Source: Tubiluchus corallicola (taxonomy: Eukaryota > Animalia > Priapulida). Taken from it: a stretch of DNA of 64,000 bases. A model generated the notes under the pieces. That model had not been told where the DNA came from and ran no database searches. It saw nothing but the letters and a program-made list of their open reading frames with translations. The translations under genes were made by a program, and so were the position numbers. Shown piece by piece: positions 8,664 through 60,162 of the stretch. The first letter of the stretch is position 1, and each line of letters begins with the position of its first letter. Location: positions 310,001 through 374,000 of the forward strand of contig JAQGDQ010000165.1 in the NCBI GenBank assembly GCA_030141605.1, written 5' to 3'.

Positions 8664-11600
8664 CTATCGCAGAGTTACTTTCATTTTATAAGCCTTTGGC
8701 GAACAAGTAAAGCCAACCACGGGCTCCAAGTCCAGTTTGGTGTCGCCATCTGGCAACTGTACATTGAAATGTTGAAGTATGCTAGTGAAGTACAGGAAAA
8801 TCTCCATACGTGCCAACGATTCTCCCAAACAAACGCGACGACCTATAAAACCAGCAAACAAAACTGGAATTACGTTCAAATAATTGGCTAAAATTATTTA
8901 TCTTAGGCTAGGCCTAAAGACTATACACAGCATAAAATTATATAGAATAAATTCTATTAGCTGCTGCATTTCTTTGTTTTTACATACCTACTGAAAACGG
9001 CATTAAGTTTTCGTTTTTGACAAATTGCCCATTTTGATCCAAATGGCGTTCTGGTCGAAATTCATACGGTTCTGGAAACTGTTCAGAATCGAGCAGTACT
9101 CCAGTAAGGTTGAGCACAATTGGTGTGGAAGCCGGTATCGTGTATCCATTAAATACACACGTCTCAGAAGTAAGATGCGGTGCTGCTATTGGAGCGATGT
9201 TACCTGTGCAATAAGACAAAGACTGGTATTACAGGTTTGGTTACAAAGTCACTGGAATTAATTACAGTTTTAAGAAACTTAGGAGTGGAAAGATTTTATT
9301 ACAGTTGATTTAAAGAAGTGCGAAACGTGTAACAGTTCATGCATTTTTGTAAAGGAACTAGAATCATGCTTTTTTTTACCAAACTTCCATGTAAGACATT
9401 TTTATAGTTATTTATATTCCCTTTAGAATGCAATCATGACAGCTTTTATCATTTTAACAATGTGTCACTCTCAATACTGATTATACAAGCTTCCCTAGAG
9501 TAGCAAGTTTATCAACAGCAGTTATTGAATTTGCATTTAGTAAATTTGACACAAATGGCAATGTCTTCAAAGTATGTGAGTAACGCATCATGTAATTACG
9601 TATCCAAACTATTTCAGAAATTGAAGAAAGCACTTGACATTCTTGGCATTTTTATAAAGCTTTTTTATTATCATAAAGTAGTTTCTGGTTCGGCAAAATG
9701 TGAGGATTTTGTAACAACAATGATAATGGTGGACAGGTGTGGTTGACGATGACAACAATGAAGACGACGATGATGACTATGATGACGAGGATGATGATGA
9801 TAATGATGGCAATGGGGATGGTAAATGGTGATCTACTCTGCTGCTTGATTGTCGAATTCTACTGATGGGACAATCAATTCTTGATAAAATCGAACACTAG
9901 TATAAAAATTTACACCTGTCCAACCTTTTCTCTCTCTCCATTTTCAAAATCTAAACACCTGAAAAAGTGTAGAACGTTGGCAATGGATTACCAAGACAGG
10001 AAGTATTCCTAAAATATCAAAATTTTGGAATTGAAATTCGCTGACTTTCAGGCACTAAAGAAAAACAGGAATTATGAATTTGGTAAATTACGGAATTTAT
10101 GTTACCTTGGTTCATATAATTTGCAAAATTTATCCCATTAAAAGGTTTGACTGCTACACAGTGCTCTTACCTAGTCTTAGCGTTTCTGTTATACAGGCCT
10201 CTACATAGGGCATATTGGAGCGGTCGCTGCAACACGGCATGCGGCTTCTTCCGACGACATCCTCAATCTCTTGCTGGGCCCTCTTCATCACTTCCGGATG
10301 CTTCATCATGAAGAGAAATGCCCAGCGTAAAGTTGTGGCTGTTGTTTCAGTTCCAGCGAAGAATAAGTCGGCGACGACTGCACTCAACTCTAATTCTAGT
10401 AAATTCATAATTGCGTTGGTAAGTGAGGCAACGACCACAGCAAATATTTTATATATTATTAAAGTATTCTAAAGAGTATTTGAACACTATAAATTTCATA
10501 ACATTAATTTGATCAATCAAAATAATGAATTATTTGTATTATAATAAATATCATAACATTTTTATCAAGCATCACAACTATTCTACAAGAACTAACCGTT
10601 GAATGTTGTATCTTTAACACCCTGGGCCTGCAGTTGTTGCATGTGACTTAAGTAGGCATCTATAAAATCTCTGGTATTTTCAGGATCGTAAGAGTCGATG
10701 TGTTCATTAGTGACTTTCACTATAAAGTCAAACAGCAGAGATTGATTCTTCACAAAACTGTCATAGCTGAAACAACAAAAAGAAACAAATGAGAAGCTTA
10801 CGACGGAAAATTAATTATAAAATCACTGGCTCCTTCATCACTGCCATGACCTGCTGCTTTACCACCACAGACCAGTGTTGATGGTACAACAATAAGGTGT
10901 AACAGAAACTGTTGTTTCGCCACAACTAACAGTCTAAGGCATCTTTTTTGTAAGCAGAAGAACCCTGGTTTAAATCCAAGTTGTATTCCAACTATTTCAC
11001 GTTTCAGTCTTCAAAGAAGCAGTCAATAGAAGGAATACAAGAAGAGCTAAACCAAGTTTCCTTTACAAATTTTGTACAAGGGAAAAAGTTAATTCTCATC
11101 AAAAAATTTGCCCTTGCATAAAATAACTTTAGCTGATTAACATCAGAGTAATAAGGCCAAATTTATATTCGTCCTAAATATTTTTCTTAGGCTGCCTTGC
11201 AGAATGTTTCTCTTAAGAATTCAGGTTAAATTAAACGTATTGGAAAGAAATATCAGTTTGCAAATCAAAACTAACACAAGTCACCTCTGTCGAATAACTG
11301 GGAGAAATCGGGTCCATGGGAAGATCTCTATGACACCTTGAAGCAAAGTGTTAGAGGAGTCTTCGCTGATACATTTCATTAGCAGCTTGAAATCTTCATT
11401 AGTGTAATCGTAAGTCCTGCCAAGTACTATGGAACAAATTACATTTGAAACGCTATTATTCATCAAAATGTGCACGTTAAAAGGTTGTCCATCTTTCTGT
11501 TTGAGTTCGTTCAAGAAACGAGCTATTTCTTCTTTCACCTTTCCTTCCAAGCTAACTTTTCCCATACCAAATTCTCTGAGTGCAGTTAAAGCGAATTTTC

Positions 11601-26670: not shown

Positions 26671-29600
26671 TTATCGCAGAGTTACTTTCATTTTATAAGC
26701 CTTTGGCGAACTAGTAAAGCCAACCACAGGCTCCAAGTCCAGTTTGGTGTCGCCATCTGGCAACTGTACATTGAAATGTTGAAGTATGCTAGTGAAGTAC
26801 AGGAAAATCTCTATACGTGCCAACGATTCTCCTAAACAAACGCGACGACCTATAAAACCAGCAAACAAAACTGGAATTACGTTCAAATAATTGGCTAAAA
26901 TTATGAAATCCTGTTTGCAGCAGGCAGTTACGCTGTTGTACAACACGCCCATTTAATAGCTACAAAACATTTAAATATTACAGGCCTACATTTCTGGAAC
27001 ATTTATACTGAAAAATGGGCTTGTTACATAGGTAAGACATTACAGAAGTTATAATTACAACATTAATATGAATAGCACGCAATGTCTATAGTGAATACTG
27101 CAAGTAGAATTACAGCATGCTAAACTTGTAATTAACCGAACTGCAATATAATTATACCTACATAGGACAGGCCTAAAGACTATACACAGCATAAAATTAT
27201 ATAGAATGAAATCTATTAGCTGCTGCATTTCTTTGTTTTTACATACCTACTGAAAACGGCATTAAGTTTTCGTTTTTAACAAATTGCCCATTTTGATCCA
27301 AATGGCGTTCTGGTCGAAATTCATACGGTTCTGGAAACTGTTCAGAATCGAGCAGTACTCCAGTAAGGTTGAGAACAATTGGTGTGGAAGCTGGTATCGT
27401 GTATCCATTAAATACACACGTCTCAGAAGTAAGATGCGGTAATGCTATTGGAGCGATGTTACCTGTGCAATAAGATAAAGACTGATATTACAGGTTTGGT
27501 CACAAAGTCACTGGAATTAATTACAGTTTTAAGAAATTTAGGTGTAAAGACTTTATTACAGTTGATTTAAAGAAGTGTGAAACGTGAAACAGTTCATGCA
27601 TTTTTGTAAAGGAACTAGAATCATGTTTTTTTTACCAAACTTCCACGTAAGACATTTTTATAGTTATTTATATTCCGTTTAGAATGCAGACATTACAGCT
27701 TTTACCATTTTAACAATGTGTCACTCTCAATACTGATTATACAAGCTGCCCTAGAGTAGCAAGTTTATCAACAGCAGTTATTGAATTTGCATTTAGTAAA
27801 TTTGTCACAAATGGCAATGTCTTCAAAGTATTTGAGTAACGCATAATGTAATTACGTATCCAAACTATTTCAGAAATTGAAGAAAGCACTTCCTTTAACT
27901 TAACATTTTTGGCATTTTTATGAAACTTTTTTATTATCATAAAGTAGTTTCTGATTCAGCAAAATTTGAGGATTTTGTAACAACAATTATAACAACGATG
28001 ATAATGGTGGACAGGTGTGGTTGACGATGATGACAATGACGATGACGACGACGATGGTGATGATGATGGCAATGGGAATGGTAAATGGTGATAAAGGCGA
28101 TCTACTCTGCAGTTTGATTGTCGAATTTTACTGATGGGGCAATCAATTCTTGATAAAATCGAATACCACTACAAAAATTTACACCTGTCCATCCTTTTCT
28201 CTCTCTCCATTGTCAAAATCTGAACACCTGAAAAAGCGTAGAACGTTGGCAATGGTTTACCAAGACAGGAAATATTCCTAAAATATCAAAATTTTGGAAT
28301 TGAAATTCGCTGACTTTCGAACACTGAAGAAAAACTGGAATTTTGAATTTGGTAAATTAAGGAATTTATGCTACCTTGGTTCACACTTTTTGCAAAATTT
28401 ATCCCATTAAAAGGTTTGACTGCTACAAACTACCTAGTCTTTGCGTTTCTGCTATACACGCCTCTACATAGGGCATATTGGAGCGGTCGCTGCAACACGG
28501 CATGTGGCTTCTTCCGACGACATCCTCAATCTCTTGCTGGGCCCTCTTCATCACTTCCGGATGCTTCATCATGAAGAGAAATGCCCAGCGTAAAGTTGTG
28601 GCCATTGTTTCAGTTCCAGTGGAAAATAAGTCGACGACGACTGCACTCAACTCTAATTCTAGTAAATTCATAATTGCGTTGGTGATTGAGGCAACGATCA
28701 CAGTGAATATTATATATATATTTAAGTATTCTAAAGAGTATTTGAATACTATAAATTGCTCATAACATTAACTTGATCAATCAAAATAAGGAATTACTTG
28801 TATTGCAATAAATATCACAATATTATTATCAGCCATCAAAACTATTTAAAAAACTAACCGTTGAATATTGTATCTTTAACACCCTGGGCCTGCAGCTGTT
28901 GCATGTGGCTTAAGTAGGCGTCTATAAAATCCCTGGTATTTTCAGGATCATAAGAGTCGATGTGTTCATTAGTGACTTTCACTATAAAGTCAAACAGCAG
29001 AGATTGATTCTTCACAAAACTGTCATAGCTGAAACGACAAAAAGAAACAAATGAGAAGCTTACGACGAAAAGTTATGCCATGACTTGCTGTTTTACCACC
29101 ACAGACCAGTGTTGGTGGTAAAACAATAAGGTGTAACAGAAATTGTTGTTTCGCCACGACTACCAACTACATTCCAACTACTGAGCAGTCAATGACGGCA
29201 CAACCCACAAATGATTAAATTTTGATACTAACCTTAAAAAACAGACCGGATTTGAATCAGGGACCTTCTGCTTACAAAGTAGATGTCTTACACCACTCGG
29301 CCACATCTCCCACCGGTCAAAGCAGTCCAAAGTTGGCCAACCTAATTCAACATTTCTAATGTTAGATCGTTCATATTAGAGTTAGAATAACTCCAATGTG
29401 AGCGTTCTAACATTGGAAATGTTGAACTCGGTTGGCCAACGGATGAACTTTGGACCCTTGTCCTTTGGAAATAACAGTCTAAGGCATCTTTTTTGTAAGC
29501 AGAAGATCCCTGGTTCAAATCCAAGTTGTATTCTAACTATTTCACGTTTCAGTCTTCAAAGAAGCAGTCAATAGAAGGAATGCAATAAGAGCTAAACAAA

Positions 29601-31877
29601 GTTTCCTTTACAAATTTTGTACAAGGGAAAAAGTTAATTCACACCAATTCCCCTGCATAAAATAACTTTAGCTGATTATTAACATCAGAGTAATAAGGCC
29701 AAATTTATATTCGTCCTAAATATTTTTCTCGGGCTGCCTTGCAGAATGTTTCTCTTAAGTATTCAGGTTAAATTAAACGTATTGGAAAGAGATATCAGTT
29801 TTCAAATCAAAACTAACACAAGTCACCTCTGTCGAATAACTGGGAGAAATCGTGTCCATGGGACGATCTCTATGACACCTAGAAGCAAAGTATTAGAGGA
29901 GGCCTCGCTAATACATTTCATTAGCAGCTTGAAATCTTCATTGGTGTAATCGTAAGTCCTGCCAAGTACTATGGAACAAATTACATTTGAAACACTATTA
30001 TTCATCAAAATGTGCACGTCAAAAGGTTGTCCATCTTTCTGCTTGAGTTCGTTCAGAAAACGAGCAATTTCTTCTTTCACCTTTCCTTCCATACTAACTT
30101 TTCCCATACCGAATTCTCTGAGTGCAGTTAAAGCGAATTTTCTCTGCTCCTTCCATACCCTGCCTTCTGACATCACCAGACCTTAAAAAGTCGAAAGTTA
30201 AAATTATTAAACTATAAAAGTGCAGAGCAAATGTTTAAAATGCCTAAAGACTAAGACGGTTTAACACCTGTAGTAAATAAAAACTGAATAATGTTTGGTT
30301 TTATTTTGTAATATTGCTAACAAGTTCAGGCATGTGACTGCATGTTACTCGCAGGAAGTAGGATGGTTAGATGGCACAGAACCCTGCATTGCTGTCTATA
30401 AGATTTACTACACTCAAAACTTACTTATGTACTTTATTTTCAATTTCATAAAATAGCGTCGATAAAGGAAAAGTGAAAACTTTAAATAATATATAAAATA
30501 TGTGCCAATACAGTGTGGGCCTAACAAGTATGCACTACGTATCGGGCTTACACACTTGTACATGTATACAAAAAAAGTCAAAGATCGAACAAGATGATAC
30601 AAACAAGCCTCTGATATAATGTGGGCACGATATATCTATTATAAATGATATGAACATAGCTTCTTTTAGCTAGACTCTACCCAGATTACTCAGGTTAATT
30701 CTACATACCTGGAACATAAGACTAATTTCTGTTACTCATGCTCTACCCAGATTACTCAGGATAACTCTACATACCTGGAACATAAGACTAATTTCTGTTA
30801 GTCATACTCTATCCAGATTACTCAGGTTAACTCTACATACCTGGAACATAAGACTAATTCTGCTACTCACACTCTACCCAAATTACACAGGTCAACTCTA
30901 CATACTTCGAACACAAGACTAGTTTATGTTACTCGTACTCTAACCAAGTTACTCAGGTTAACTCTACATATCTGGAACATGAGATTAGTTTCTGCTACTC
31001 ATACTCTACCCAAGTTACTCAGGTTAACTCTACATATCTGGAACATAAAGACTAGTTTCTGCTATTCATGCTCTACACAGATTATTCGGTTAACTCTACA
31101 CACCTCGAACACAAGACTAGTTTCTGTTACTCATACTCTACCCAGATTACTCAGGTTAACTCTACATACCTGGAACATAAGACTAATTTCTATTACTCAT
31201 GCTCTACCCAGATTACTCAGGTTAACTCTACATACCAGGAACATTAATTCTGTTACTCATACTCTACCCAAGTTACTCAGGTTAACTCTACATACCTGGA
31301 ACATAAGACTGGTTTCTGTTACTCATACTCTACCCAAATTACTCAGGTTAACTCTACCTACCTCGAACACAAGACTAGTTTATGTCACTCATACTCTACC
31401 CAAGTTATTCAGGTTAACTCTACATATCTGGAACATGAGATTAGTTTCTGCTACTCATGCTCTACCCAGATTATTCGGTAAACTCTACATACCTGGAACA
31501 TGCTTAACGTGTCCGAATCCAAGTTTTTGTAAAAGGTCGTCAGTGAAGAAGGTTCGGGGTCGCCCCGAAAAAATCTCTCCTTGTTTTAGAAAAGCTTTGC
31601 GTGCTAGCTCGGCATCATTAATTACTATGTGCAGTTTACTTCCTAAGTAGACACTAAATATTTTTCCGTAGGTCTTAGACAGCTCTGTGAAAAATTCTCC
31701 TATATGTTTTCCCGCTGACAGTATGGAACCAATGTAAGGCCATCCAAGAGGACCAGGTGGTATATTCGAAGGTCTCTTGAGGTACTGCCACAATTTTAGC
31801 GCAAGAAGCACGCACACGCTAGTTGCTACACATTTCAAAATTGTACATCCAAATAAACACGTGTGTTCGGCAGACAT
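26671..31877 (-). CDS. Cytochrome P450, clan 2 (CYP2-like), copy B. Exons 31877-31493, 30181-29827, 29028-28859, 28658-28434, 27462-27247, 26849-26671
   Basis: Close paralog of CYP-A with the same exon structure and an intact heme motif. The I-helix reads FSTGTETM. Confidence 0.9.
29243..29310 (-). mobile_element. tRNA-derived sequence (SINE head or tRNA pseudogene, Thr-TGT-like)
   Basis: Minus strand ggagatgTGGCCGAGTGGtgtaag...tttgtaa...GATTCAAATCC shows A-box and B-box-like motifs, but the acceptor stem pairs poorly. Confidence 0.55.
30660..31502. repeat. ~61-bp minisatellite (~14 units) at the start of CYP-B intron 1
   Basis: Same unit and same position as in CYP-A. Confidence 0.92.
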
Positions 31878-32079: not shown

Positions 32080-33930
32080 TTTAGTGTGGCACAGCTCGGC
32101 TTAAGGGTATGATATTAGGTTAAAGTGCCACCTATCATTGACTTCTGCAACTAACTTTATTTTGCTTTATTTTTACATAAAAAAAATGTTGGGTTCAGCT
32201 TTGACAATATCTTGAGGCTACTTGTAATTCAAATTTAAACTGAGTAAAAGCAACAACAAGTGAACTAAGATTAAAAATAATTTATTCTATTGGCTTTACT
32301 ATAAAATACAGCTAATTTTAGTTAGGTAAAATCCACAATCATCAATACTATTCTTGTTTCTAGTTAAAGAAATCTTCTGTAGCAATTGCAATTGGTCATG
32401 CAAAGAATGCTAGAGTCCAGGTTTCAGTAAGATTAAGCAGTTGCAATTTTCATGCCAGTCCTGTGTATAGGTACTATGTTCCTGTTCCACATTTAACTAA
32501 AAGTGAGCAAAACTATGATCCAGTCTCTTCTTTCACTTATTTGTATAAGATCTCGAATAACCCCGGATCAATAGCTAGCTGACTTGTGATCTGCAACTTT
32601 TTTTTAAGTGGAACTTTTTCATTCCAGGAATTTTCTGCAACTTTTCTATTCTGCAACTCTTTAAATTCTGCAACTCTTTAAGTTCTGCAACTCTTTAAAT
32701 TCTGCAACTCTTTTCAATTCTGCAACTCTTTTCAATTCTGCAACTCTTTTAATTCTGGAACTCTTCTATTCTGCAACTCTTTTCAATTCTGCAACTCTTT
32801 TAATTCTGGAACTCTTCTATTCTGCAACTCTTTTAATCCTGGAACTCTTTTATTCTGGAACTCTTCTATTCTGCAACTCTTTTAATTCTGGAACTCTTTT
32901 AATTCCTGGAACTCTTTTAATTCTGCAACTCTTTTAATTCTGGAACTCTTTCATTCCAAGAATTTTCTGCAACTCTTTTAATTCCAGGAAATTTCTGCAA
33001 CTCTTTTAATTCCAGGAAATTTCTGCAACTCTTTTAATTCCAGGAAATTTCTGCAACTCTTTTAATTCCAGGAAATTTCTGCAACTCTTTTAATTCCAGG
33101 AAATTTCTGCAACTCTTTTAATTCCTGGAAATTACTGGAACTCTTTTGATCTTGGATTTTCCTGGAACTCTCAGCAACTCTTTTAAATCTTGGATTTTCC
33201 TGGAACTCTCAGCAACTCTTTTAAATCTTGGATTTTCCTGGAACTCTTTTTGTCTCTGCAACTGCTTCAATCCTGAAACCCTTTTCTAGCTTCTCTTTTG
33301 GTTTCTAGAACCTAGTGTTTCTGAAACTCTTTTCATTTCTGGAACTCTTTTCTAGGTTCTAGATTCCTGACACATCCTAGCTAGTTTTGAAAGCTAGCTT
33401 TATCTAGTAAGTTAAAACTTACTTCTCATCCTGCTTCTTTTCCATGTTTAGATGAATCTTCAGTTGCTGTAGCTCTTTATCACTTTGAAAATGTTCGGAT
33501 GTGTGTGGTCAATGGCCTGGCCCTCCCTTTATATAGCCGCCTGAGCGTCGGCGTCGCTAAGTTACCATGGATTGTGCATTGTAACCGAGGGGTGGGCTGT
33601 TCATTACACTTTGTTACTTTCAGTCTTCTAATTATAATTTCATCAATTTGTTTTGCTCTTTTTTTAACAGCGCATATGTTTGTCTACATTTAATCTAATT
33701 TATCAGCTTATGTTTGATCCTTTTTGTTTTTATTTTCTTGTTTTCCAAACCGGGAATTCACCGGGTTCTAAAGTTTCATCGCCCTGTGTTTATCTTTCGG
33801 TCAGCATCTGGTGTGCTCGCCGAATAGCGAAGATGTGCATAACATAAGAGCATCCATAATGGCTGCGTCCATAGTGCGTGTAAACAATATTAAAATTCCG
33901 ATGATTATATTTTTTTTAGAGAATATTACA
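32080..33930 (-). repeat. 3' LTR, with an internal ~20-bp tandem array at ~32590-33360
   Basis: Direct repeat of 41760-43544. Preceded on the minus strand by the polypurine tract AAGAAAGGGGGAAT (33931-33944). Confidence 0.93.
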
Positions 33931-34383
33931 ATTCCCCCTTTCTTAAAACTGCACCTGCCCTCAGGTGCTCTGTCTCCTGTCAGCATCAGGTATGCTTACC
34001 AAACTATTGTTGAGTTTTGTTGACTGCTCCTTTAAAATTTTTTTTTTTTGTTTCTTTGCCATCCTGATATTGAAATCCAATACAGCTTATATACTTACTA
34101 AACTGAATACAGCTTTATTTACTTGTAAAATATAACGGAATTTTTATACATCCATACATATTCTTGATAGCACCATTCTAGTAAACAATATAAGTAAATA
34201 AGCAAGTATATAATACTGGAACAACCCGTTGTAGATATGCTGATATATTCCTTCAAATGATATATATATATATATAAAAGATATATAATTTTTAATCTAA
34301 TTTATCTAGGAAATATTGGAATGTATATATGAACGTAGGTTGAACGTAGGTATGAATATATATTGGAACGTAGCTGCATGGCC

Positions 34384-35332
34384 TTAGTCCTCTTCACTGG
34401 AGAAGTCATCCGAGGAGACAGCTAGATCTATAGAAATATCTGTATTTGTGGGTGGCATTTGTTGTTGACCTTCAGTGTTCTTCTTTTCAGCCAACTTTTC
34501 CACCTCCTTTCTCACCAACTTGCTTACAGTTGTTTCCATTCTCTCATACATACGATCAACTGCCTCATTCCACTCTTTTTCTTTCTTCTCCGTAATTTCT
34601 TTACTCTTCTTCTCTAAAACTGCTTCCCACTTATTTAGAGCTGCTACCCTGCATCGCTCCTCTAGTTCCATGATCTCATTTTTTAATTTTAATATCTTTT
34701 CCCTCATGACTATCTGATCTAGCTCTGTGCATGGAGGTGGAGCTTTTCGTGGCACCTTGTCCGACTGCGGTGCAAGGAATACTGGCAGATTTTTCGACTG
34801 TGTTTCCTTGTATGGTTTATAGTGTGGTAAGGCAGGTCTAGTTGGTTTTCTAACTTGGTTGGTCAGGTTATGGGTGCTGTTCTGCCTCACAATACTTCTG
34901 CTTCTGAAATTTCTGAAGGTTGAGTTGCTTGTTGGTGGCTTGAAGGCCCTGTTCTTCGGATTACTTAACTCAGGCCTTACTGTAACTGGGGAAGTTCCTC
35001 TTTTTGTTTTGGGTGATTTTGCTGTTTTGATTTTGCTTTCCTGTTCCGACCTCTGATTATGACTCTTTAAATCTCGCTCTTTCTTCCCGTCTTTTCTTTC
35101 CAGACTGCTGTCACTAGTTGTACTCCATTTGGAGCGGCTCAATCTTGGTGATCCTTCTGGTGACAGAGGTCTTTTATCAACAGAGGTTGCCTGAGGTGGC
35201 CTTTCAAGACGCTTAGTTGGCCAAGTAGCGGGAATTTGTCTACTCCCATGACATGCCTTCCAGTGTTTTGACATATAGGCAGTCCTTTGAGACCTATAGT
35301 CACAGTTTGTACAACAGTACACTGTCTCCCTC
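34384..35332 (-). CDS. Accessory ORF3 of the LTR element: C2H2-like zinc finger, basic low-complexity region, predicted coiled coil and acidic tail; probably spliced to LTR mini-exon 43059-43037
   Basis: CTNC-x12-HWKACH motif and no hydrophobic transmembrane segment. Splice acceptor ttattttgtctattttag|G lies at 35333/35332. Confidence 0.75.
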
Positions 35333-35703
35333 CTAAAATAGACAAAATAACAGTGTTTTAATAACTTCATTTTCCACGGTTACGTTTTTTTTTTACTAAG
35401 GTACCTTTGCCTATTTCTTTTTTTTCTACATTGTAATTGTAATAAGTGACACATTTCTAAGTGACATGTGATTATCAAGTGTCACTAACTCATACTTTTC
35501 TATATTTTTTTTTCTTATGCTGGATGCAGTTTAATGCCTTGCCCAGGGCAACTAATCCAGATAACAGCTTTTAACAGAAAATTAATGCAGCAGCAGAGGA
35601 AAGGAAGAAAATATGGTTAAGTTATAGGTCAAGTCTGTTTGGAGGTTTCCTCATCCGCTGTCCTCTTCCTAGCATTGTGTCAGAAGTGCTACTGGACGGT
35701 TCA

Positions 35704-38700
35704 TCATTTTTTTTCTTGAATTGTGGTAGTTCCTGTTGTATACATTTCTTCTTTCTCTGCTACTTCTTCATTAACTGTAGGAAAAATTCTACTCAATTCA
35801 AATTCTTCTAGTTGCTGTTCATCATCAGAATTTGCTAGTTTCTCTATTTCTGTCCAGTCTATTGGTGGTTCATCAGTATGATAAAGCTTCAAGTTGTCAA
35901 TATGAACTACTTTAACAGGAGCTTTTGCATCTCTCTGGATTTGGTATGTCACATTATTAATCTTCTTTAGTACTAGATATGGGCCTTGCCAGCCTTGGCC
36001 TAATTTTCTCCTGGTAGCTGGTGGATACCAGTACCATACCCAGTTACCTTTATCAATGCTAAGCCTTTTCACAAATTGATCATAATCTCGTTTTTGTCTT
36101 TCTGCAGCTTTTCCCAGTGATTCTCGAGCAAAATTGTGTGCCTCTTTTATAACATCTCTTATCCATTCTACGTATTCCTGTGGACACTGTGTAGGTCTTT
36201 CTGGCTGTGGTGGAGGTCCCACCATCACATCTAATGGCAAATGGTTTTCCCTACCAAACATCATTAAGTTTGGCGAGCAATTGGTAGACGCATGTGCGGT
36301 TGCCCTGTATGCCATCATGACATAAGGGAGGTGGTCATCCCAGTCATCACGATGATCGTTAACAAATATAGCCAGCATTTGCTGTAATGTCCTCATAAAT
36401 CTCTCAACGAGACCATCTGATTGTGGATGATACGGGGTTGTCCTTGTTTTGTCAATCTGCAAAGCAGCACACATTTCTTGAAATAACTTTGACTCAAAGT
36501 CTGGCCCTTGGTCACTATGTATTTGAATTGGTACTCCAAACCTGCATATAAATTCGGTCACCAACACATCTGCAACAGTATATGCCTCGTGATTAGGAAG
36601 TGCATAGGCTTCGGCCCATTTTGTAAAATAGTCACAGACGACCATCACCACCTTATTTTTCTTATCAGTCTCTTCTAGTGGTCCTAAAATGTCTATTGCT
36701 ATTCTTTCAAATGGTCCAGTTGCCCTCTGTTGTTGCAGTTTACCTCTTTTTGGTCCTTTTCCAGGTTTTCTTCTGGCACAAGCAGCACAATATAGGCACC
36801 ATCTTTTAATGTCTGCCTGATAACCTGGCCAGTAATACCGTTGCTTTAATAATGACAGACTCCTCTGTATTCCTTGGTGTGCACCAGTTCTGGTTTCATG
36901 CAAAGCTCTAAATAATTTCCTTCGTAATGCAGTTGGTACAACCATCTGGTATACAGGAGCACTTGGTGTTACATCTGTTTCCCACTTCTTGTACAGCAAT
37001 CCATCTCGTACCTCTAATACATCAAACAAGTTCCAGTATGCCTTGAAATCTGGGTGTTTATCTTTCACATCTTTCCAGCTGGGTCGGTCCAAATCTTCTT
37101 CTTTCAACTCCTTGAATAACAAAACTGCTTCCTCTTCCTGTTGCATGTTAATAACATCTTCTCTTGACAAATCTAAAACAAACTTTTTCTCTTCTTCATC
37201 TTCTACCTCTATTTCTTGACTTGCCAATATTCTGCTGGGAGCCACTACAAAACATGAACCATGCGCTGCTTCCTCAGCCATATAGGGAGCCTCTCCTAAA
37301 CACAAATCGTGCGCTGCTTCTTCCATATGAGGAGGAGCCTCTACCAAACACGATTTCTGCGCTGCTTCCCTGATATCACCAGGAGCCTCTACAGAACACA
37401 AGTCGTGCGCTGCATCCTTTCCACAAGTAGGTGCCTCTGTTATGCACAGTCTGTGCGCTGCTTCCTGGTCTTCATAAACATTGTCAAGTCCATCTTCCCC
37501 CTTTCTGGAATTACCTTCCATGCATAAGCATTCTTTTCTACATCTTACTTTACCTTTTCTGAAACTACTGCTTTCCTCTTCTCCATTTCCAGCTGGTATT
37601 GCATAGATAAAATCACACTCAGCATTGTTTGGAACTTTTAAAATATCGTTACGTGTCCTCTTGCTAATTTCTTTAGAACTGTGGGCTTCTTTCGTGCCTT
37701 TATGCCTGTCGTCATTACAGTCCTCTCTTGGGCATTTGCTAACCCTTGTATTTGGTTTTCTGGATAATCCATCAGCATTCCCATGTTGTGTTCCTTTTCT
37801 ATGCTCAACACTAAAATCATAAGTGTCTAAAATAGATAACCATCTTGCTATCATACCTTCTGGGTTCTTGAAATTGATGAGCCAAGTTAGTGCTGCATGA
37901 TCAGTCCGAATCCTAAAATGTCTTCCCCATAGATAATGGTGGAATTGTTTTACAAATGTGATAACAGCCAGTAATTCTTTTTTTGTAGTACAGTACTGCC
38001 TTTGTGACTGGTTTAATGTCCTACTAGCATAAGCAATGACTTTCTCTTCATCGACTTGTAACTGGGATAAAACAGCTCCAATCCCAGAGTTACTGGCATC
38101 TGTATCTAAGATGAATTTTCCCTCCTGTGTTGGATATGCCAATGCAGGACTTCGTGTTAAAAGATCTATTAAGGTGTTAAATGCTGCCATACATGAATCA
38201 TTCCAAATAAATGTTGCTCCTTTCTTTGTCAAGGCAGTAAGGGGGTCTGCAATTGAGGCAAAATGTGGAATGAATTTTCTATAATATAAAGCAAATCCCA
38301 AGAAGCTACGTACTTGTGTAGGTGTTTTTGGGAATGTCCAATTCTTTACAGCCAGTATTTTGTCTGGATCACATCGGATGCCTTGACTATCCACTACATG
38401 CCCTAGGAACCGAACACTTGTCTGAAACAGTGTGCTTTTTGATGGCTTGATTTTCAAATTTGCTTTCCTCAAGCGAGAAAATACTGTCTTTAAATTATTT
38501 TTAGCCTCTTCAAAGTTTTTGCCAAAAACAATAATATCATCGAGATAGACAAGACAATTCTTCCATTGTAAGCCTCTAAGTACTTCTTCCATTAACCTCT
38601 CAAATGTGGCTGGTGCATTACAAAGGCCAAACGGCATCACTCGAAACTGAAATAATCCTTGTCGTGTAACAAAAGCTGTTTTAGGCTTCGACGTTTCATC

Positions 38701-39870
38701 CATTTCAACTTGCCAATACCCGCTAGCTAGGTCGAAAGTAGAGAACCAGTGGGACCCACGTAATGTGTCAAAAATCTCTTGAATGTTTGGCAGTGGAAAC
38801 CCATCTTTAATTGTCTTTTCATTTAACTGACAATAATCAACGCAAAATCGTGTGGAGCCATCCTTTTTAGTCACCAACACGATCGGTGAGGCCCAGGGAC
38901 TGTTGCTGTGTTCAATAATTTGTTCTTTGAGCATTTTATTTATTTCAGCTTCAGCAATGGCTCTTTTCTGTTCAGCCAGTCTTCTCGGAGCTTGTTTAAC
39001 TGGGTGCTCAGTACCAGTGTCAATAACGTGTCTTACCAAGTTTGTCCTGCCATATTTATTATCGGGCCCCACAAATATATCCTGATATTCCTGTATCAAA
39101 TTTACGAGAGAAGATTGCTCACTAGGTGAAAGCTTAGAGCTGATTTCTTCTATTAGTTGATGCAAGTGCTCAGGGAGCAGAGATTTCGGAGCACCCTTTT
39201 CACCAATATTTTCTGGCAACACTAAGTCAATCTGATTATCTGAAGAAGACTCATGTTCATAATCTGAACTATCCACTGAATTCTTGAAACATTGTATAGT
39301 AACTTCACCAATATGGAGAATTCCTTGCTGCATATCTAGCACAGCACTTCTTGGTTCAAGAAAATCCAATCCTAAAATTCCGAAGGGCCCTCCAATGGAA
39401 GCGACAATCATTGTACTAGTGGTACTTATTCCAGCTAATATAACTTGGAATTCAGCTTCTCCCATTTGAATCAGTGTACTAGTGGTACTTATTCCAGCTA
39501 ATATAACTTGGAATTCAGCTTCTCCCATTTGAATCAGTGTGTGTCCACTAGCTGCTTGAAGATTCTTTTCGGCGCTTTTCAAGACTGGTCTTTCTTCTTC
39601 CGGAATACTATAATACATGTAAACATCTAATATGCTAGCACTGGCTCCACTATCGATTACAAAATCTACATCTAAACTGTTGATTAATAATTCTACATGC
39701 CAACAATATTTATAATCTACTGGTAGAACTACAATGTTCTCACTTCTCTTCTTTATCAGATCGGAGTGAGGAGGAATAACTACTTCTTCTTTGTTCAGAG
39801 CTGCAACTACCTCTTGCTTTCCCGTCACGGGGCCAGTGCAAGGTAGTATTCCTGAGGCCTGTGTATTCAT
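35704..39870 (-). CDS. pol: Gypsy Pol polyprotein (protease, reverse transcriptase, RNase H, integrase)
   Basis: Protease DSGA; RT SPWASP, FDLASGYWQ and YLDD; RNase H TDAS...ELLA...TDH; integrase HHCC, AIDI...SDQG...E and GPY/F. The C-terminus is cut by a frameshift in an A8 run. Confidence 0.96.
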   Translation of the reverse strand: MNTQASGILPCTGPVTGKQEVVAALNKEEVVIPPHSDLIKKRSENIVVLPVDYKYCWHVELLINSLDVDFVIDSGASASILDVYMYYSIPEEERPVLKSAEKNLQAASGHTLIQMGEAEFQVILAGISTTSTLIQMGEAEFQVILAGISTTSTMIVASIGGPFGILGLDFLEPRSAVLDMQQGILHIGEVTIQCFKNSVDSSDYEHESSSDNQIDLVLPENIGEKGAPKSLLPEHLHQLIEEISSKLSPSEQSSLVNLIQEYQDIFVGPDNKYGRTNLVRHVIDTGTEHPVKQAPRRLAEQKRAIAEAEINKMLKEQIIEHSNSPWASPIVLVTKKDGSTRFCVDYCQLNEKTIKDGFPLPNIQEIFDTLRGSHWFSTFDLASGYWQVEMDETSKPKTAFVTRQGLFQFRVMPFGLCNAPATFERLMEEVLRGLQWKNCLVYLDDIIVFGKNFEEAKNNLKTVFSRLRKANLKIKPSKSTLFQTSVRFLGHVVDSQGIRCDPDKILAVKNWTFPKTPTQVRSFLGFALYYRKFIPHFASIADPLTALTKKGATFIWNDSCMAAFNTLIDLLTRSPALAYPTQEGKFILDTDASNSGIGAVLSQLQVDEEKVIAYASRTLNQSQRQYCTTKKELLAVITFVKQFHHYLWGRHFRIRTDHAALTWLINFKNPEGMIARWLSILDTYDFSVEHRKGTQHGNADGLSRKPNTRVSKCPREDCNDDRHKGTKEAHSSKEISKRTRNDILKVPNNAECDFIYAIPAGNGEEESSSFRKGKVRCRKECLCMEGNSRKGEDGLDNVYEDQEAAHRLCITEAPTCGKDAAHDLCSVEAPGDIREAAQKSCLVEAPPHMEEAAHDLCLGEAPYMAEEAAHGSCFVVAPSRILASQEIEVEDEEEKKFVLDLSREDVINMQQEEEAVLLFKELKEEDLDRPSWKDVKDKHPDFKAYWNLFDVLEVRDGLLYKKWETDVTPSAPVYQMVVPTALRRKLFRALHETRTGAHQGIQRSLSLLKQRYYWPGYQADIKRWCLYCAACARRKPGKGPKRGKLQQQRATGPFERIAIDILGPLEETDKKNKVVMVVCDYFTKWAEAYALPNHEAYTVADVLVTEFICRFGVPIQIHSDQGPDFESKLFQEMCAALQIDKTRTTPYHPQSDGLVERFMRTLQQMLAIFVNDHRDDWDDHLPYVMMAYRATAHASTNCSPNLMMFGRENHLPLDVMVGPPPQPERPTQCPQEYVEWIRDVIKEAHNFARESLGKAAERQKRDYDQFVKRLSIDKGNWVWYWYPPATRRKLGQGWQGPYLVLKKINNVTYQIQRDAKAPVKVVHIDNLKLYHTDEPPIDWTEIEKLANSDDEQQLEEFELSRIFPTVNEEVAEKEEMYTTGTTTIQEKK

Positions 39871-39902
39871 GACCGGGACACTGGCCCCATGCCCGGTCTC
39901 CT

Positions 39903-41668
39903 TTAGTTTAACTGCTTATGTACCTGGTTTTCAGAACCAACAGCTTCTTCTCTTGGTCTTTTTGGAGATGTAGCTATCGAAAACTGTGTCATCTTGGGAA
40001 ATCTTTCTCTGCAAAATCTCATCACATGTCCAGGCTTGTGACAGTAGTAACATTCAACCTTCGCACGCCAGTCATTTTGATTTCTCACCTCATTTTGTTT
40101 TTGCATATTTGATTCAACGTTAAACTTCTTTTCTTGTTTTTCAGTATTAGTGAGTTCACGCAGCTGGTATTTTACACTGTTCAGCTCTTTCATAATTTCT
40201 TCCAAAGTTATTTCTTTGCTTGATGATGCTTTGTGTGTATAATTCACTTGGTTGATTCTCGGTTGTAGCGGCTTCTTGCTTCTAGCTTCGGCGGCCTCCT
40301 TAGTCACTGCCTCATATTGTGCAACTTTTGTTATTGCATCCTCAAGCGTTTTTGGTTCCTGGAGGCTGGCATGCTTTCTGACTTCTATGTCACCAAGTCC
40401 TTCCAGGTATTTATCAATTAGTAAAGCTTCACTAGCTTCTTTTGACAAACCAGGATAGGCTAAGCCAAACAAACGTCGAACTGTAGCTCCAAATTCTTCC
40501 GGAGTTTCACTTAATTTTCTCATTCGATGCCTCAGCTCACTGCGATGTTGTAGCATGCGTTCAGCTGGATCAAAACGTTTACCCAGTGCTTGGATGAGTG
40601 ACATGTAAGTCACTTCACCAGAATCCAAATCCATTTCCATTGCAACTTCAAGTGCATCCCCTTCCAAGCATAAGGGTAGGTGGGTCACCCATTCAGTTCT
40701 TGGCCAACTGTTGTGTTTTGCAACTAGTTCAAACTTTGCAATAAATTGTCTGAACTGCAAGCCATCTCCTGTTTTAAAAGTAGGAGGCTTCTTTTCTTTG
40801 CGTATTTTGCCTGCTCCTTTTGCTTGTGTTGTCGCAGTTGGAGTTGACTGTTTGGTAAGATGGGGCAGTGGTGTCCATCCAACTTCAGGCTGATTTGGTG
40901 TTGTATAACTTATATGTGGCCATCTTGGTTCTACTTCTTCACCAGCTTCTGATGCATTTCCCTCTGTTGACCATTCTGACCATGGTGAATGTACTTCTAC
41001 AGGTGGTGCTTCAATCCAGCCTGTATGTCTCGCACGTTTTCGCTTGCTTTCAGTACTAGGTGTACCGAGATTGGATAAAGTTGTTTTTGGTTTTACAGAT
41101 GGTGTTATCTGTAATGTAGTCGGCTGCAAGCTTTCTTCGTTTTGCAGTGCTGCTGGGAGTGTTGCTCTTCTCTTGCTGAATTTTCTATCTTGTTAAGATG
41201 TGGCAGTGGTGTCCATCCAACTTCAGGCTGATTTGGTGTTGCATAACTTATATGTGGCCATCTTGGTTCTACTTCTTCACCAGCTTCTGATGCATTTCCC
41301 TCTGTTGACCATTCTGACCATGGTGAATGTACTTCTACAGGTGGTGCTTCAATCCAGCCTGTATGTCTCGCACGTTTTCGCTTGCTTTCAGTACTAGGTG
41401 TACCGAGATTGGATAAAGTTGTTTTTGGTTTTACAGATGGTGTTATCTGTAATGTAGTCGGCTGCAAGCTTTCTTCGTTTTGCAGTGCTGCTGGGAGTGT
41501 TGCTCTTCTCTTGCTGAATTTTCTATCTTGTTCTGCTCCATCTGTTTCCATCTTATGCATAGCATTTTCTATGTGGACCTCTGTATTTTGTGCTCCCACA
41601 ATTGTATCAGTGTTACTTTTAGGAGTGGAAGTCAGAAAGGATTTTAAGTAGGATAATATAGCTGTCAT
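39903..41668 (-). pseudogene. gag: gag, split into two ORFs by a 338-bp internal tandem duplication
   Basis: Capsid-like region (LPLCLEGDA) and CCHC knuckle CYYCHKPGHVMRFC. ORFs 41105-41668 and 39903-41129 share a duplicated peptide. Confidence 0.88.
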
Positions 41669-41738
41669 TTTACCAATTTTATTACAGCTTGCCGTTCTTA
41701 CTCAGTTTGAATCACAATGCCTCAAAACAAAATTCAAA

Positions 41739-41756
41739 ATCCCGGACGAGCCCCCA
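41739..41756 (-). promoter_or_regulatory. Primer-binding site complementary to tRNA-Pro
   Basis: TGGGGGCTCGTCCGGGAT lies 3 nt inside the 5' LTR boundary and is the well-known 18-nt tRNA-Pro PBS. Confidence 0.92.
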
Positions 41757-41759
41757 AAA

Positions 41760-43544
41760 TGTAGTGTGGCACAGCTCGGCTTAAGGGTATGATATTAGGT
41801 TAAAGTGCCACCTATCATTGACTTCTGCAACTAACTTTATTTTACTTTATTTTTACATAAAAAAATGTTGGGTTCAGCTTTGACAATATCTTGAGGCTAC
41901 TTGTAATTCAAATTTAAACTGAGTAAAAGCAACAACAAGTGAACTAAGATTAAAAATAATTTATTCTATTGGCTTTACTATAAAATACAGCTAATTTTAG
42001 TTAGGTAAAATCCACAATCATCAATACTATTCTTGTTTCTAGTTAAAGAAATCTTCTATAGCAATTGCAATTGGTCATGCAAAGAATGCTAGAGTCCAGG
42101 TTTCAGTAAGATTAAGCAGTTGCAATTTTCATGCCAGTCCTGTGTATAGGTACTATGTTCCTGTTCCACATTTAACTAAAAGTGAGCAAAACTATGATCC
42201 AGTCTCTTCTTTCACTTATTTGTATAAGATCTCGAATAACCCCGGATCAATAGCTAGCTGACTTGTGATCTGCAACTTTTTTTTAAGTGGAACTTTTTCA
42301 TTCCAGGAATTTTCTGCAACTTTTCTATTCTGCAACTCTTTAAATTCTGCAACTCTTTAAGTTCTGCAACTCTTTAAATTCTGCAACTCTTTTCAATTCT
42401 GCAACTCTTTTCAATTCTGCAACTCTTTTAATTCTGGAACTCTTCTATTCTGCAACTCTTTTCAATTCTGCAACTCTTTTAATTCTGGAACTCTTCTATT
42501 CTGGAACTCTTTTAATTCTGCAACTCTTTCATTCTGGAACTCTTCTATTCTGCAACTCTTTTAATTCTGGAACTCTTTTAATTCCTGGAACTCTTTTAAT
42601 TCTGCAACTCTTTTAATTCTGGAACTCTTTCATTCCAAGAATTTTCTTTTAACTCCAGGAAATTTCTGCAACTCTTTTAATTCCAGGAAATTTCTGCAAC
42701 TCTTTTAATTCTGGAACTCTTTTAATTCCTGGAAATTACTGGAACTCTTTTAATTCCTGGAAATTACTGGAACTCTTTTGATCTTGGATTTTCCTGGAAC
42801 TCTCAGCAACTCTTTTAAATCTTGGATTTTCCTGGAACTCTCAGCAACTCTTTTAAATCTTGGATTTTCCTGGAACTCTTTTTGTCTCTGCAACTGCTTT
42901 AATCCTGAAACCCTTTTCTAGCTTCTCTTTTGGTTTCTAGAACCTAGTGTTTCTGGAACTCTTTTCTAGGTTCTAGATTCCTGACACATCCTAGCTAGTT
43001 TTGAAAGCTAGCTTTATCTAGTAAGTTAAAACTTACTTCTCATCCTGCTTCTTTTCCATGTTTAGATGAATCTTCAGTTGCTGTAGCTCTTTATCACTTT
43101 GAAAATGTTCGGATGTGTGTGGTCAATAGCCTGGCCCTCCCTTTATATAGCCGCCTGAGCGTCGGCGTCGCTAAGTTACCCTGGATTGTGCATTGTAACC
43201 GAGGGGTGGGCTGTTCATTACACTTTGTTACTTTCAGTCTTCTAATTATAATTTCATCAATTTGTTTTGCTCTTTTTTTAACAGCGCATATGTTTGTCTA
43301 CATTTAATCTAATTTATCAGCTTATGTTTGATCCTTTTTGTTTTTATTTTCTTGTTTTCCAAACCGGGAATTCACCGGGTTCTAAAGTTTCATCGCCCTG
43401 TGTTTATCTTTCGGTCAGCATCTGGTGTGCTCGCCGAATAGCGAAGATGTGCATAACATAAGAGCATCCATAATGGCTGCGTCCATAGTGCGTGTAAACA
43501 ATATTAAAATTCCGATGATTATATTTTTTTTAGAGAATATTACA
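41760..43544 (-). repeat. 5' LTR, with TATA box (TATATAAA ~43142-43149) and ATG mini-exon 43059-43037
   Basis: TG...CA termini. Direct repeat of 32080-33930. Confidence 0.94.
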
Positions 43545-44682
43545 ATATTACTCGATTTTGTTCTGCAGTAAAACCATCAATAATTTGTTTGAAAATTGTG
43601 CACAGAAATCACAGCTAAATTATTTTAATTGCATGATGTTTCAATCATTTTAATGATATGGAACATATGTGATTGAAGTGCCAAATTATTCGAATCTATA
43701 GTTTTACATTCGAATCTAGTTCGAACTAAAAAACTCGTTCGACTCGAATTCAAATGTTCGTATTATTGATGGCCATTATACTGCTGTACCATATACAGCA
43801 TAATTGTTGTACCTCAACGAGATATTCTTTTAGCCTTGAGGGGTGATAGATAGGAGAAATAGCCTCCTAAAACATGCAGTGTTTGCAAACTAGTTGGAAT
43901 GCATTCAAGGGGTATCTTGATGACATATGGCAAAACTGCTGCTGCAATACTGAAGCAGTGCCTTCAAGCAAATTTTAGTCAATATGTAATGTTCTTTGTA
44001 ATCTTAATGAGGACATTACAGGGCTTTACGTTTTTAATGTTAAAGATGACAGGTCTCACTCATAATTAGCATTATCTTAATAATTATTTGTATAGTTTTC
44101 AAGAACAGAATGGTCAACAGGCTAATGCCTAACACGTGGGTGATGGTATGGTGTCCTAAACCACTATTTCACATGGAGTAGTTTGCCAGCAGATATCATA
44201 TTGCCTCAAGCTCTCGAGTGTAACGTTTTTTTAAAAATGGTTACTGTTTTCAACTTTCTGCAGCATTATCTTCTTTGCAATGCTTTTAAGTTATTTGTTA
44301 TTTTGTTTAACCAACTTTCATGAAACACACGGACCTGTATATAATTATAATAATGACATTTACTCAGTATTTTTTTACAATTTAATAAAATTTAAAAATA
44401 AATTCTCAAAAGCATAAAGTGGTCGTGTAAGCGTACCTTTTGATGTTAATAAAATTGTAGTGACGTCATACGCACAGGAGTTTTTAACTATTGCTGAATT
44501 ACAGTGGTTCCTTTAGCGATAAAATAGGAACTCTTGGGACGAAACATTAGTGATTTGCCGAACTTCTGTGTCTTAAAAATGCCCAAACCTAACGCTGTTT
44601 TAGAAAAAAAACTTTAGAGCAACATTGACGAGTTTAAAACCTATAACTTTGGGTAGTCACCGGTATACCTTGACATTTCAAA

Positions 44683-60162
<15,480 letters not shown>

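Follow-up and report, generated by a model that had tools for sequence, protein, structure and literature searches.

The present study concerns a third open reading frame (ORF), called ORF3 here, of a young multi-copy Ty3/Gypsy retrotransposon that lies on the minus strand of a 64,000-nt stretch of Tubiluchus corallicola DNA (contig JAQGDQ010000165.1, positions 310,001 to 374,000; hereafter the window, in whose coordinates all positions are given). Taken as a whole, the findings point to an intact third gene under selection, likely expressed by splicing from the long terminal repeat (LTR), whose product is predicted to be a nuclear zinc-finger regulator of the element, a reading that we consider probable on balance.

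ORF3 is very likely a real gene. Its main exon (34384 to 35332) lies in a stop-free frame of 331 codons, longer than any found in 1000 shuffles of the region between pol and the LTR (maximum 234). The earlier note on this DNA had proposed to look at the frame across family copies, and it is indeed kept open in the other copies seen in run X1, which behaves as DNA in that it covers the predicted intron and the unique flanks. The X1 contig over ORF3 differs from the window by six synonymous and four replacement changes and by one 3-nt deletion, which gives a ratio of nonsynonymous to synonymous change (pN/pS) of 0.18 (P 0.008), or of 0.34 (P 0.08) under a null that allows transitions only, and thus modest support for selection; in pol, 16 of 23 changes are synonymous. 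Both of the listed X1 indels that fall inside ORFs are multiples of 3, and eight of the nine outside are not. The depth of X1 over ORF3 (about 183, contig depth not being a copy number) is far above that on the unique flank (3–10), and the family therefore has many copies. The same depth is 2.6–4.6 times that over pol (40–70), and the contigs skip parts of pol and gag, which hints at pol-less derivatives retaining ORF3.

It is very improbable that ORF3 is instead a captured fragment of a host gene, or a chance frame, in neutral drift. Such an origin would agree with the lack of homologs, because a search of 1.84 billion representatives returned one match, to the finger only, and a search of 5.8 billion proteins gave none among those of 173–552 aa; the within-family selection test, moreover, misses significance when the stricter null is applied (P 0.08). 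We nevertheless disfavor it, given that ORF3 is open in other copies, that finger ORFs occupy the same slot across many families with dN<dS in relatives (see below), and that no second match to ORF3 was found elsewhere in the window.

The composition of the protein read from its translation in the earlier note is borne out. A C2H2-like finger (C-x2-C-x12-H-x4-H) occupies the first 30 residues of the main exon, and is followed by a Ser-rich basic middle, which is a Ser/Thr/Pro-rich disordered region with 39 K+R against 13 D+E, by a helical region that AlphaFold models as an 86-residue helix (aa 203–288, pLDDT 86–98 over aa 201–280), and by an acidic tail, which carries a SUMO-interacting-like motif (SIM-like motif); no transmembrane segment is present (highest 19-residue hydropathy −0.05). 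The finger has the classical C2H2 spacing (C-x2-C-x12-H-x3-5-H) together with the aromatic and hydrophobic core residues. The best Pfam match of ORF3 is a C2H2 model, at an E value of 0.0047 that falls short of the curated cut-off, and its ten best family-bearing ESM look-alikes are all C2H2 proteins, with scores under 0.9. AlphaFold confidence is low over the finger (pLDDT 40–46) and for the whole model (pTM 0.30), and a Foldseek search of this low-confidence model against viral structures gave no match at E≤0.001. An identity of ORF3 as env was rejected, since the protein has neither a signal peptide nor a hydrophobic segment and no Env family was matched in the Pfam scan.

Splice signals and start codon of ORF3

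Expression of ORF3 through a splice from the LTR, which would join a donor at 43036 to an acceptor at 35333, is likely. The LTR promoter is predicted from a TATA box at 43142 to 43149, whose GGCTATATAA context is the same in the nearest relative, L081. The LTR ATG that the earlier note had placed downstream of this box, at 43059, lies 90 nt from its first base (43149), is the first ATG beyond the TATA box plus 25 nt, and has A at −3 and G at +4. It would open a candidate coding mini-exon (43037 to 43059, 23 nt coding) that runs into a phase-2 GTAAGT donor, while the candidate acceptor, consisting of a polypyrimidine tract and AG at 35333 to 35350 (ttattttgtctattttag|G), ends at 35333 and leaves 35332 as the first exon base. 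The proposed boundaries, 43037|GT and AG|35332, both in phase 2, all hold, and the joined frame is open over 972 nt, which comprise 323 aa and a single stop at 34386 to 34384. In our own heuristic scoring of splice sites, the acceptor reaches 7.3, the highest value among all AG sites between the primer binding site (PBS) and the finger (runner-up 4.6), and is equaled in none of 500 shuffles; a host acceptor seen spliced in run X2, taken as a yardstick, scores 6.3. The donor scores 4.9, which is the top value in the LTR and 300 nt of leader (runner-up 2.4), and agreement in phase between donor and acceptor is expected by chance in 1 of 3 cases. No change in the mini-exon or its donor is among the differences listed for X1, and a minority X1 contig has a 12-nt deletion immediately upstream of the mini-exon ATG. 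Run X2 represents spliced RNA: one of its contigs spans a GT..AG intron (about 675 nt) of a host gene on the plus strand, upstream of the element (44675 to 45493), where 8 of 114 bases differ from the window. No X2 contig lies on the element, and the run is uninformative on the expression of the element.

Two points speak against the LTR splice, whose sites are predicted. A donor as good occurs in 5% of shuffles of the stretch following the TATA box (P 0.05), and an in-frame ATG at 35368 to 35370, overlooked in the earlier note, lies inside the predicted intron, 18 codons upstream of the finger, has A at −3, and would give a 328-aa product without splicing. ORF3 could thus be real and yet made without the mini-exon, from ATG 35370 by way of an internal promoter or another upstream acceptor, or from a weaker donor at 41701 and a later ATG. 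The mini-exon, which gives an ORF of eight codons if left unspliced, would then be only an upstream ORF. We regard this as unlikely. X1 lists no frameshifting indel between 35333 and 35370, and the relatives L086 and L087 have an ATG of their own and no acceptor, both of which suit an unspliced start; the 12 codons from ATG 35370 to the acceptor, however, are the polypyrimidine tract itself, and donor 41701 leaves no ATG ahead of the finger. Moreover, the proteins homologous to that of L081 begin with extensions that do not align and that stop at F-R, a few residues short of the conserved Met, which, judged at the protein level, looks like read-through of an acceptor.

Zinc-finger ORFs in related Gypsy elements

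The earlier note was partly right about the ORF3 of the window, but treated it as an oddity of one element; the architecture is widespread in relatives. A C2H2 pattern is encoded in sense within 2.5 kb at 21 of 61 loci and at none in antisense, against 0.8 expected. When loci that had been picked for their finger are set aside, a sense C2H2 frame follows the integrase in 15 of 55 (or 15 of 52 families), a figure biased downward, again with none in antisense and 0.75 expected. Ranked by integrase identity, 8 of the 16 closest relatives have a finger, followed by 7 of the next 23 and 0 of the last 16. The related integrases came from contigs of metagenomes and from prokaryote genome bins that contain animal DNA. 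Of 218 loci, 104 were analyzed, the distant L031–L080, bacterial insertion sequences, two loci of a viral collection, and short duplicate cuts being omitted; the integrase filter retained 87, of which 61 extend 1 kb or more downstream. Bins G001–G005 gave 231 matches to Gypsy integrase (110 in G001), which are evidently animal host DNA, while in the viral contig collection the reverse transcriptase (RT) query found no match and the integrase alignment found two distant loci.

In the common layout, one or two fingers stand at the N terminus and are followed by a middle of low complexity and, in many cases, by an end that is helical or acidic. Pfam C2H2 models match in four of six relatives tested, and L087 has two tandem classical fingers above the cut-off. 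Pairs of relatives have pN<pS in 8 of 8 cases, with dN/dS of 0.17–0.38 in four and saturated synonymous sites in four. In a quick tree built from 58 integrase rows, the row nearest to the window is L081 (SH-aLRT 99), which has a finger ORF, and the finger trait is clustered (7 changes versus 17 when shuffled). The tails of ORF3 are alike within groups and not like that of the window, and the finger ORFs therefore represent a shared architecture rather than one protein family; they may have had one origin followed by losses, or several captures. The tails of L159, L179, and L183 are RS-rich (33, 21, and 10 RS/SR dipeptides), that of L088 has a PLDLS CtBP-type motif, and that of L087 a terminal SIM-type motif; such RS, CtBP, and SIM motifs are weakly enriched over shuffles. 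The ORF3 of L173 (G001:C1091) stands behind a very strong acceptor (score 10.1), in frame with the integrase, and its first ten residues apparently resemble the N-terminal tail of histone H3.

Splice signals recur in these relatives. An acceptor lies at most 12 nt before a pre-finger ATG in 10 of 18 (2.2 expected), although the threshold of 2.5 was set after the scores had been seen and the loci are related, amounting to about seven independent clades. With a threshold fixed beforehand, 11 of 33 pre-finger ATGs have an acceptor versus 52 of 575 other ATGs (P 2e-4). The remaining 8 of the 18, including the L086/L087 and L161/L163/L180/L181/L193 groups, fall below the threshold, and an automatic scan of the LTRs, most of which are cut off, detected a donor close to the TATA box in 2 of 5 elements with a finger (the window included) and in 1 of 11 without one; both results tell against the splice. 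L081 has AAG|GTGAGT 76 nt after its LTR TATA (P 0.0015), and L173 has, as judged by eye, TAA|GTAAGT 77 nt after the TATA box, with no ATG seen in the first exon of either. In relatives with an LTR donor, the first exon appears to be non-coding, with the ATG just past the acceptor, so that to date a coding mini-exon in the LTR is predicted only for the family of the window. L089 resembles the window in that no ATG separates the finger from the best acceptor. The spliced non-env accessory gene of the earlier note is upheld insofar as a non-env zinc-finger third ORF is real and its splice sites are matched in relatives.

The frame relations in some of these loci bring up the possibility that ORF3 serves in the targeting of integration or is associated with particles, as a free-standing equivalent of the chromodomain or finger that some elements append to their integrase. 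The finger is in frame with the integrase in L173 and L198, and it lies beyond the pol stop, with the frame unchanged, in L086 and L088. Such a role seems improbable, however, because in L173 the finger is preceded by a strong acceptor and by an ATG of its own, the sister copies of L086 are not in frame, and ORF3 of the window is 387 nt from the pol stop and in a different frame.

Predicted role of ORF3 and known systems

In the mechanism that we propose, transcription would start about 25–30 nt after the LTR TATA box and would yield full-length RNA along with a short, default-spliced RNA encoding ORF3, in which donor 43036 is joined to acceptor 35333 and the PBS, gag, and pol are removed as in env messages. 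The ATG would be supplied by the LTR exon in the window, while relatives would mostly keep an ATG just after the acceptor. The ORF3 protein would be soluble and nuclear, its finger and basic region would bind nucleic acid, its long helix might form oligomers or act as a spacer, and host factors would be brought in by its acidic, SIM-like tail. As a product of the default-spliced RNA, the protein would be the first to appear and would in turn act on the full-length RNA. A nuclear regulatory role of some kind is very likely. As for its nature, ORF3 may be a DNA- or chromatin-binding regulator of its own LTR, that is, a transactivator or an anti-silencing shield; we favor this because the fingers are classical, are tandem in several relatives, and are accompanied by acidic or SIM-like tails, although we put its probability a little short of even. 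More tentatively, a wide and so far undescribed set of animal Gypsy elements might represent “complex” retrotransposons, in which an env-type splice from an LTR exon yields C2H2 regulators of their own that bind the element and bear short host-mimicking motifs (SIM-like, CtBP-like, RS-rich, and histone-tail-like), by which they would activate it or protect it against silencing. If that were true, it would be the mirror image of the host zinc-finger repressors of transposons.

Several considerations should temper this assignment. The role of ORF3 is predicted from sequence features, and the SIM-like C-terminal motif, present in ORF3 of the window and in L087 (2 of 21, 0.36 expected), was counted with a pattern picked after the data were seen. 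Selection within the window's own family rests on 10 changes, and most loci come from one bin, G001. Between the ORF3 tail of the window and that of every relative no similarity was detectable, hhalign of ORF3 to the L081 family gives a probability of 0.8%, and the tree needs 7 gains or losses, which leaves a common origin as one option.

Alternatively, with the same gene and splice, ORF3 might act like HIV Rev, or like CERV of the Caenorhabditis elegans Gypsy element Cer1; it would then bind unspliced element RNA and permit its escape from splicing or its export. With the best-scoring donor some 90 nt past the predicted start and the best-scoring acceptor beyond pol, gag-pol would be lost by default splicing, and both the basic middle of ORF3 (39 K+R, 13 D+E) and the RS-rich tails of L159, L179, and L183 suit such export. 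This role nonetheless seems doubtful to us, because no leucine-rich export-signal pattern was found in ORF3, the protein is unlike the described domains of CERV (a C4 finger and a G-like domain), classical C2H2 fingers bind DNA more often, and errantiviruses splice env and have, to our knowledge, no Rev-type factor. The nearest precedent in function is CERV itself, which, according to the portions of PMC10309623 consulted, is a nuclear, finger-bearing Gypsy product of a spliced mRNA that is needed for the genomic RNA to be exported from the nucleus, and which shows that such a protein can regulate its own element. CERV and ORF3 have in common that they are non-env accessory proteins of Gypsy elements with a putative zinc finger, a spliced mRNA, and a nuclear location, the last two being predictions for ORF3 (PMC10309623, in part). 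CERV is described there as having 517 aa, five exons, three of which are in the gag frame, a C4-type loop, a G-protein-like domain, and homologs only in nematodes, whereas ORF3 has one N-terminal C2H2 finger and two predicted exons, the first inside the LTR, and no gag sequence. None of the H, M, and G domains, the C4 loop, or the gag-shared exons of CERV is found in ORF3, whose model consists of finger, disorder, and long helix.

Among errantiviruses, env is spliced to a short upstream peptide, which the available part of the source places upstream of gag, its location relative to the LTR being unstated there (bioRxiv 10.1101/2023.08.03.551782). ORF3 has the splice signals for a subgenomic RNA of this kind, paralleled in relatives, as predicted sites only; it is unlike an F-type envelope glycoprotein with signal peptide and anchor, having no signal peptide, transmembrane segment, or Env match. 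Non-env ORF3s are described in LTR elements of bdelloid rotifers (PMC5408684, in part), and further examples are additional ORFs of plant elements, with a regulatory role proposed for antisense ones (PMC7264820, in part), and non-env third ORFs of giant elements (PMC6431247, in part). The rotifer and plant ORFs resemble ORF3 in that they are additional frames, specific to a family, that sit between pol and the 3′ LTR, and they are stated to derive from spliced messages; the types described in the parts consulted are Env, transmembrane, GDSL, DEDDy, and coiled-coil, and none of the terms “zinc,” “finger,” and “C2H2” appears in PMC5408684, nor does “zinc” in PMC7264820. Tat, Rev, Tas, Rem, and Rec are small nuclear regulators produced from spliced or internal transcripts of the 3′ half of the genome (PMC7264820 and PMC7828637, each in part), and ORF3, for which no sequence or fold similarity to them was found, is comparable by analogy only.

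A Gypsy element with a non-env third ORF is therefore known, and what the comparison suggests to be new is a C2H2-finger class recurring in this slot. The full-text literature yielded no account of a third ORF of the C2H2 type in a Gypsy element, but it leaves subscription journals, Repbase, and supplements largely outside, so prior annotation is possible. In the literature searched, CERV is the sole animal Gypsy accessory regulator whose function has been put to the test, and the finger third gene in 8 of the 16 closest relatives suggests that regulatory accessory genes are common in Gypsy elements and have been overlooked because they are short, spliced, and unalignable. ORF3 offers a concrete and testable candidate for the means by which LTR elements switch themselves on, bring about the export of unspliced RNA, or withstand silencing. 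It also serves as a warning that, among the zinc-finger genes annotated as “host” genes in the genomes of invertebrates, some could be ORF3s of retrotransposons.

Structure of the element and its surroundings

The element, all of it on the minus strand, has the two LTRs, PBS, and polypurine tract of Ty3/Gypsy elements (Metaviridae), with the domain order protease (PR), RT, ribonuclease H (RH), and integrase (INT) and a Ty3-type capsid. The 5′ LTR (41760 to 43544, about 1.79 kb, TG...CA) contains, downstream of the promoter, an array of about 700 nt of degenerate 16–18-nt repeats, and the PBS (41739 to 41756) is presumably of the tRNA-Pro type. The gag gene (39903 to 41668) encodes a Ty3 capsid-like domain and a zinc knuckle, and pol (35704 to 39915; PR-RT-RH-INT) is open in the −1 frame relative to gag. 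The polypurine tract (33931 to 33945) precedes the 3′ LTR (32082 to 33930), which carries a second copy of the mini-exon at 33445 to 33423 and lacks the terminal CA; the target-site duplication is imperfect. Because the LTRs differ by only 15 substitutions, 4 of them outside the internal tandem repeat stretch, the insertion is young. RT-RH sequences of relatives are 59–73% identical, and the named close RT relatives include the bivalve Pinctada (59–62%); Gypsy clades named in PMC6238403 include Mag C-clade, MolGy, and CsRN1.

In the window copy, gag is divided between two frames by a 338-nt tandem duplication (about 40852 to 41527), and the protease region has a short in-frame duplication (39411 to 39475) that is absent from the X1 contig; an assembly artefact could account for either one. 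Between the predicted start at 43059 and the gag ATG at 41668 there are twelve ATGs, and good acceptors are found near the LTR end at 41918 and 41943; gag-pol may require a spliced leader of its own or internal initiation. About 200 nt downstream of the 3′ LTR end is the first coding exon (31490 to 31877) of a cytochrome P450 gene, likewise on the minus strand, and the 3′ LTR promoter and donor could drive this gene or splice into it. Elsewhere, at 8904 to 11435 and 27163 to 29977 and at 50959 and 59531, the window contains further long two-copy repeats, which are 91–97% alike, and several tandem arrays.

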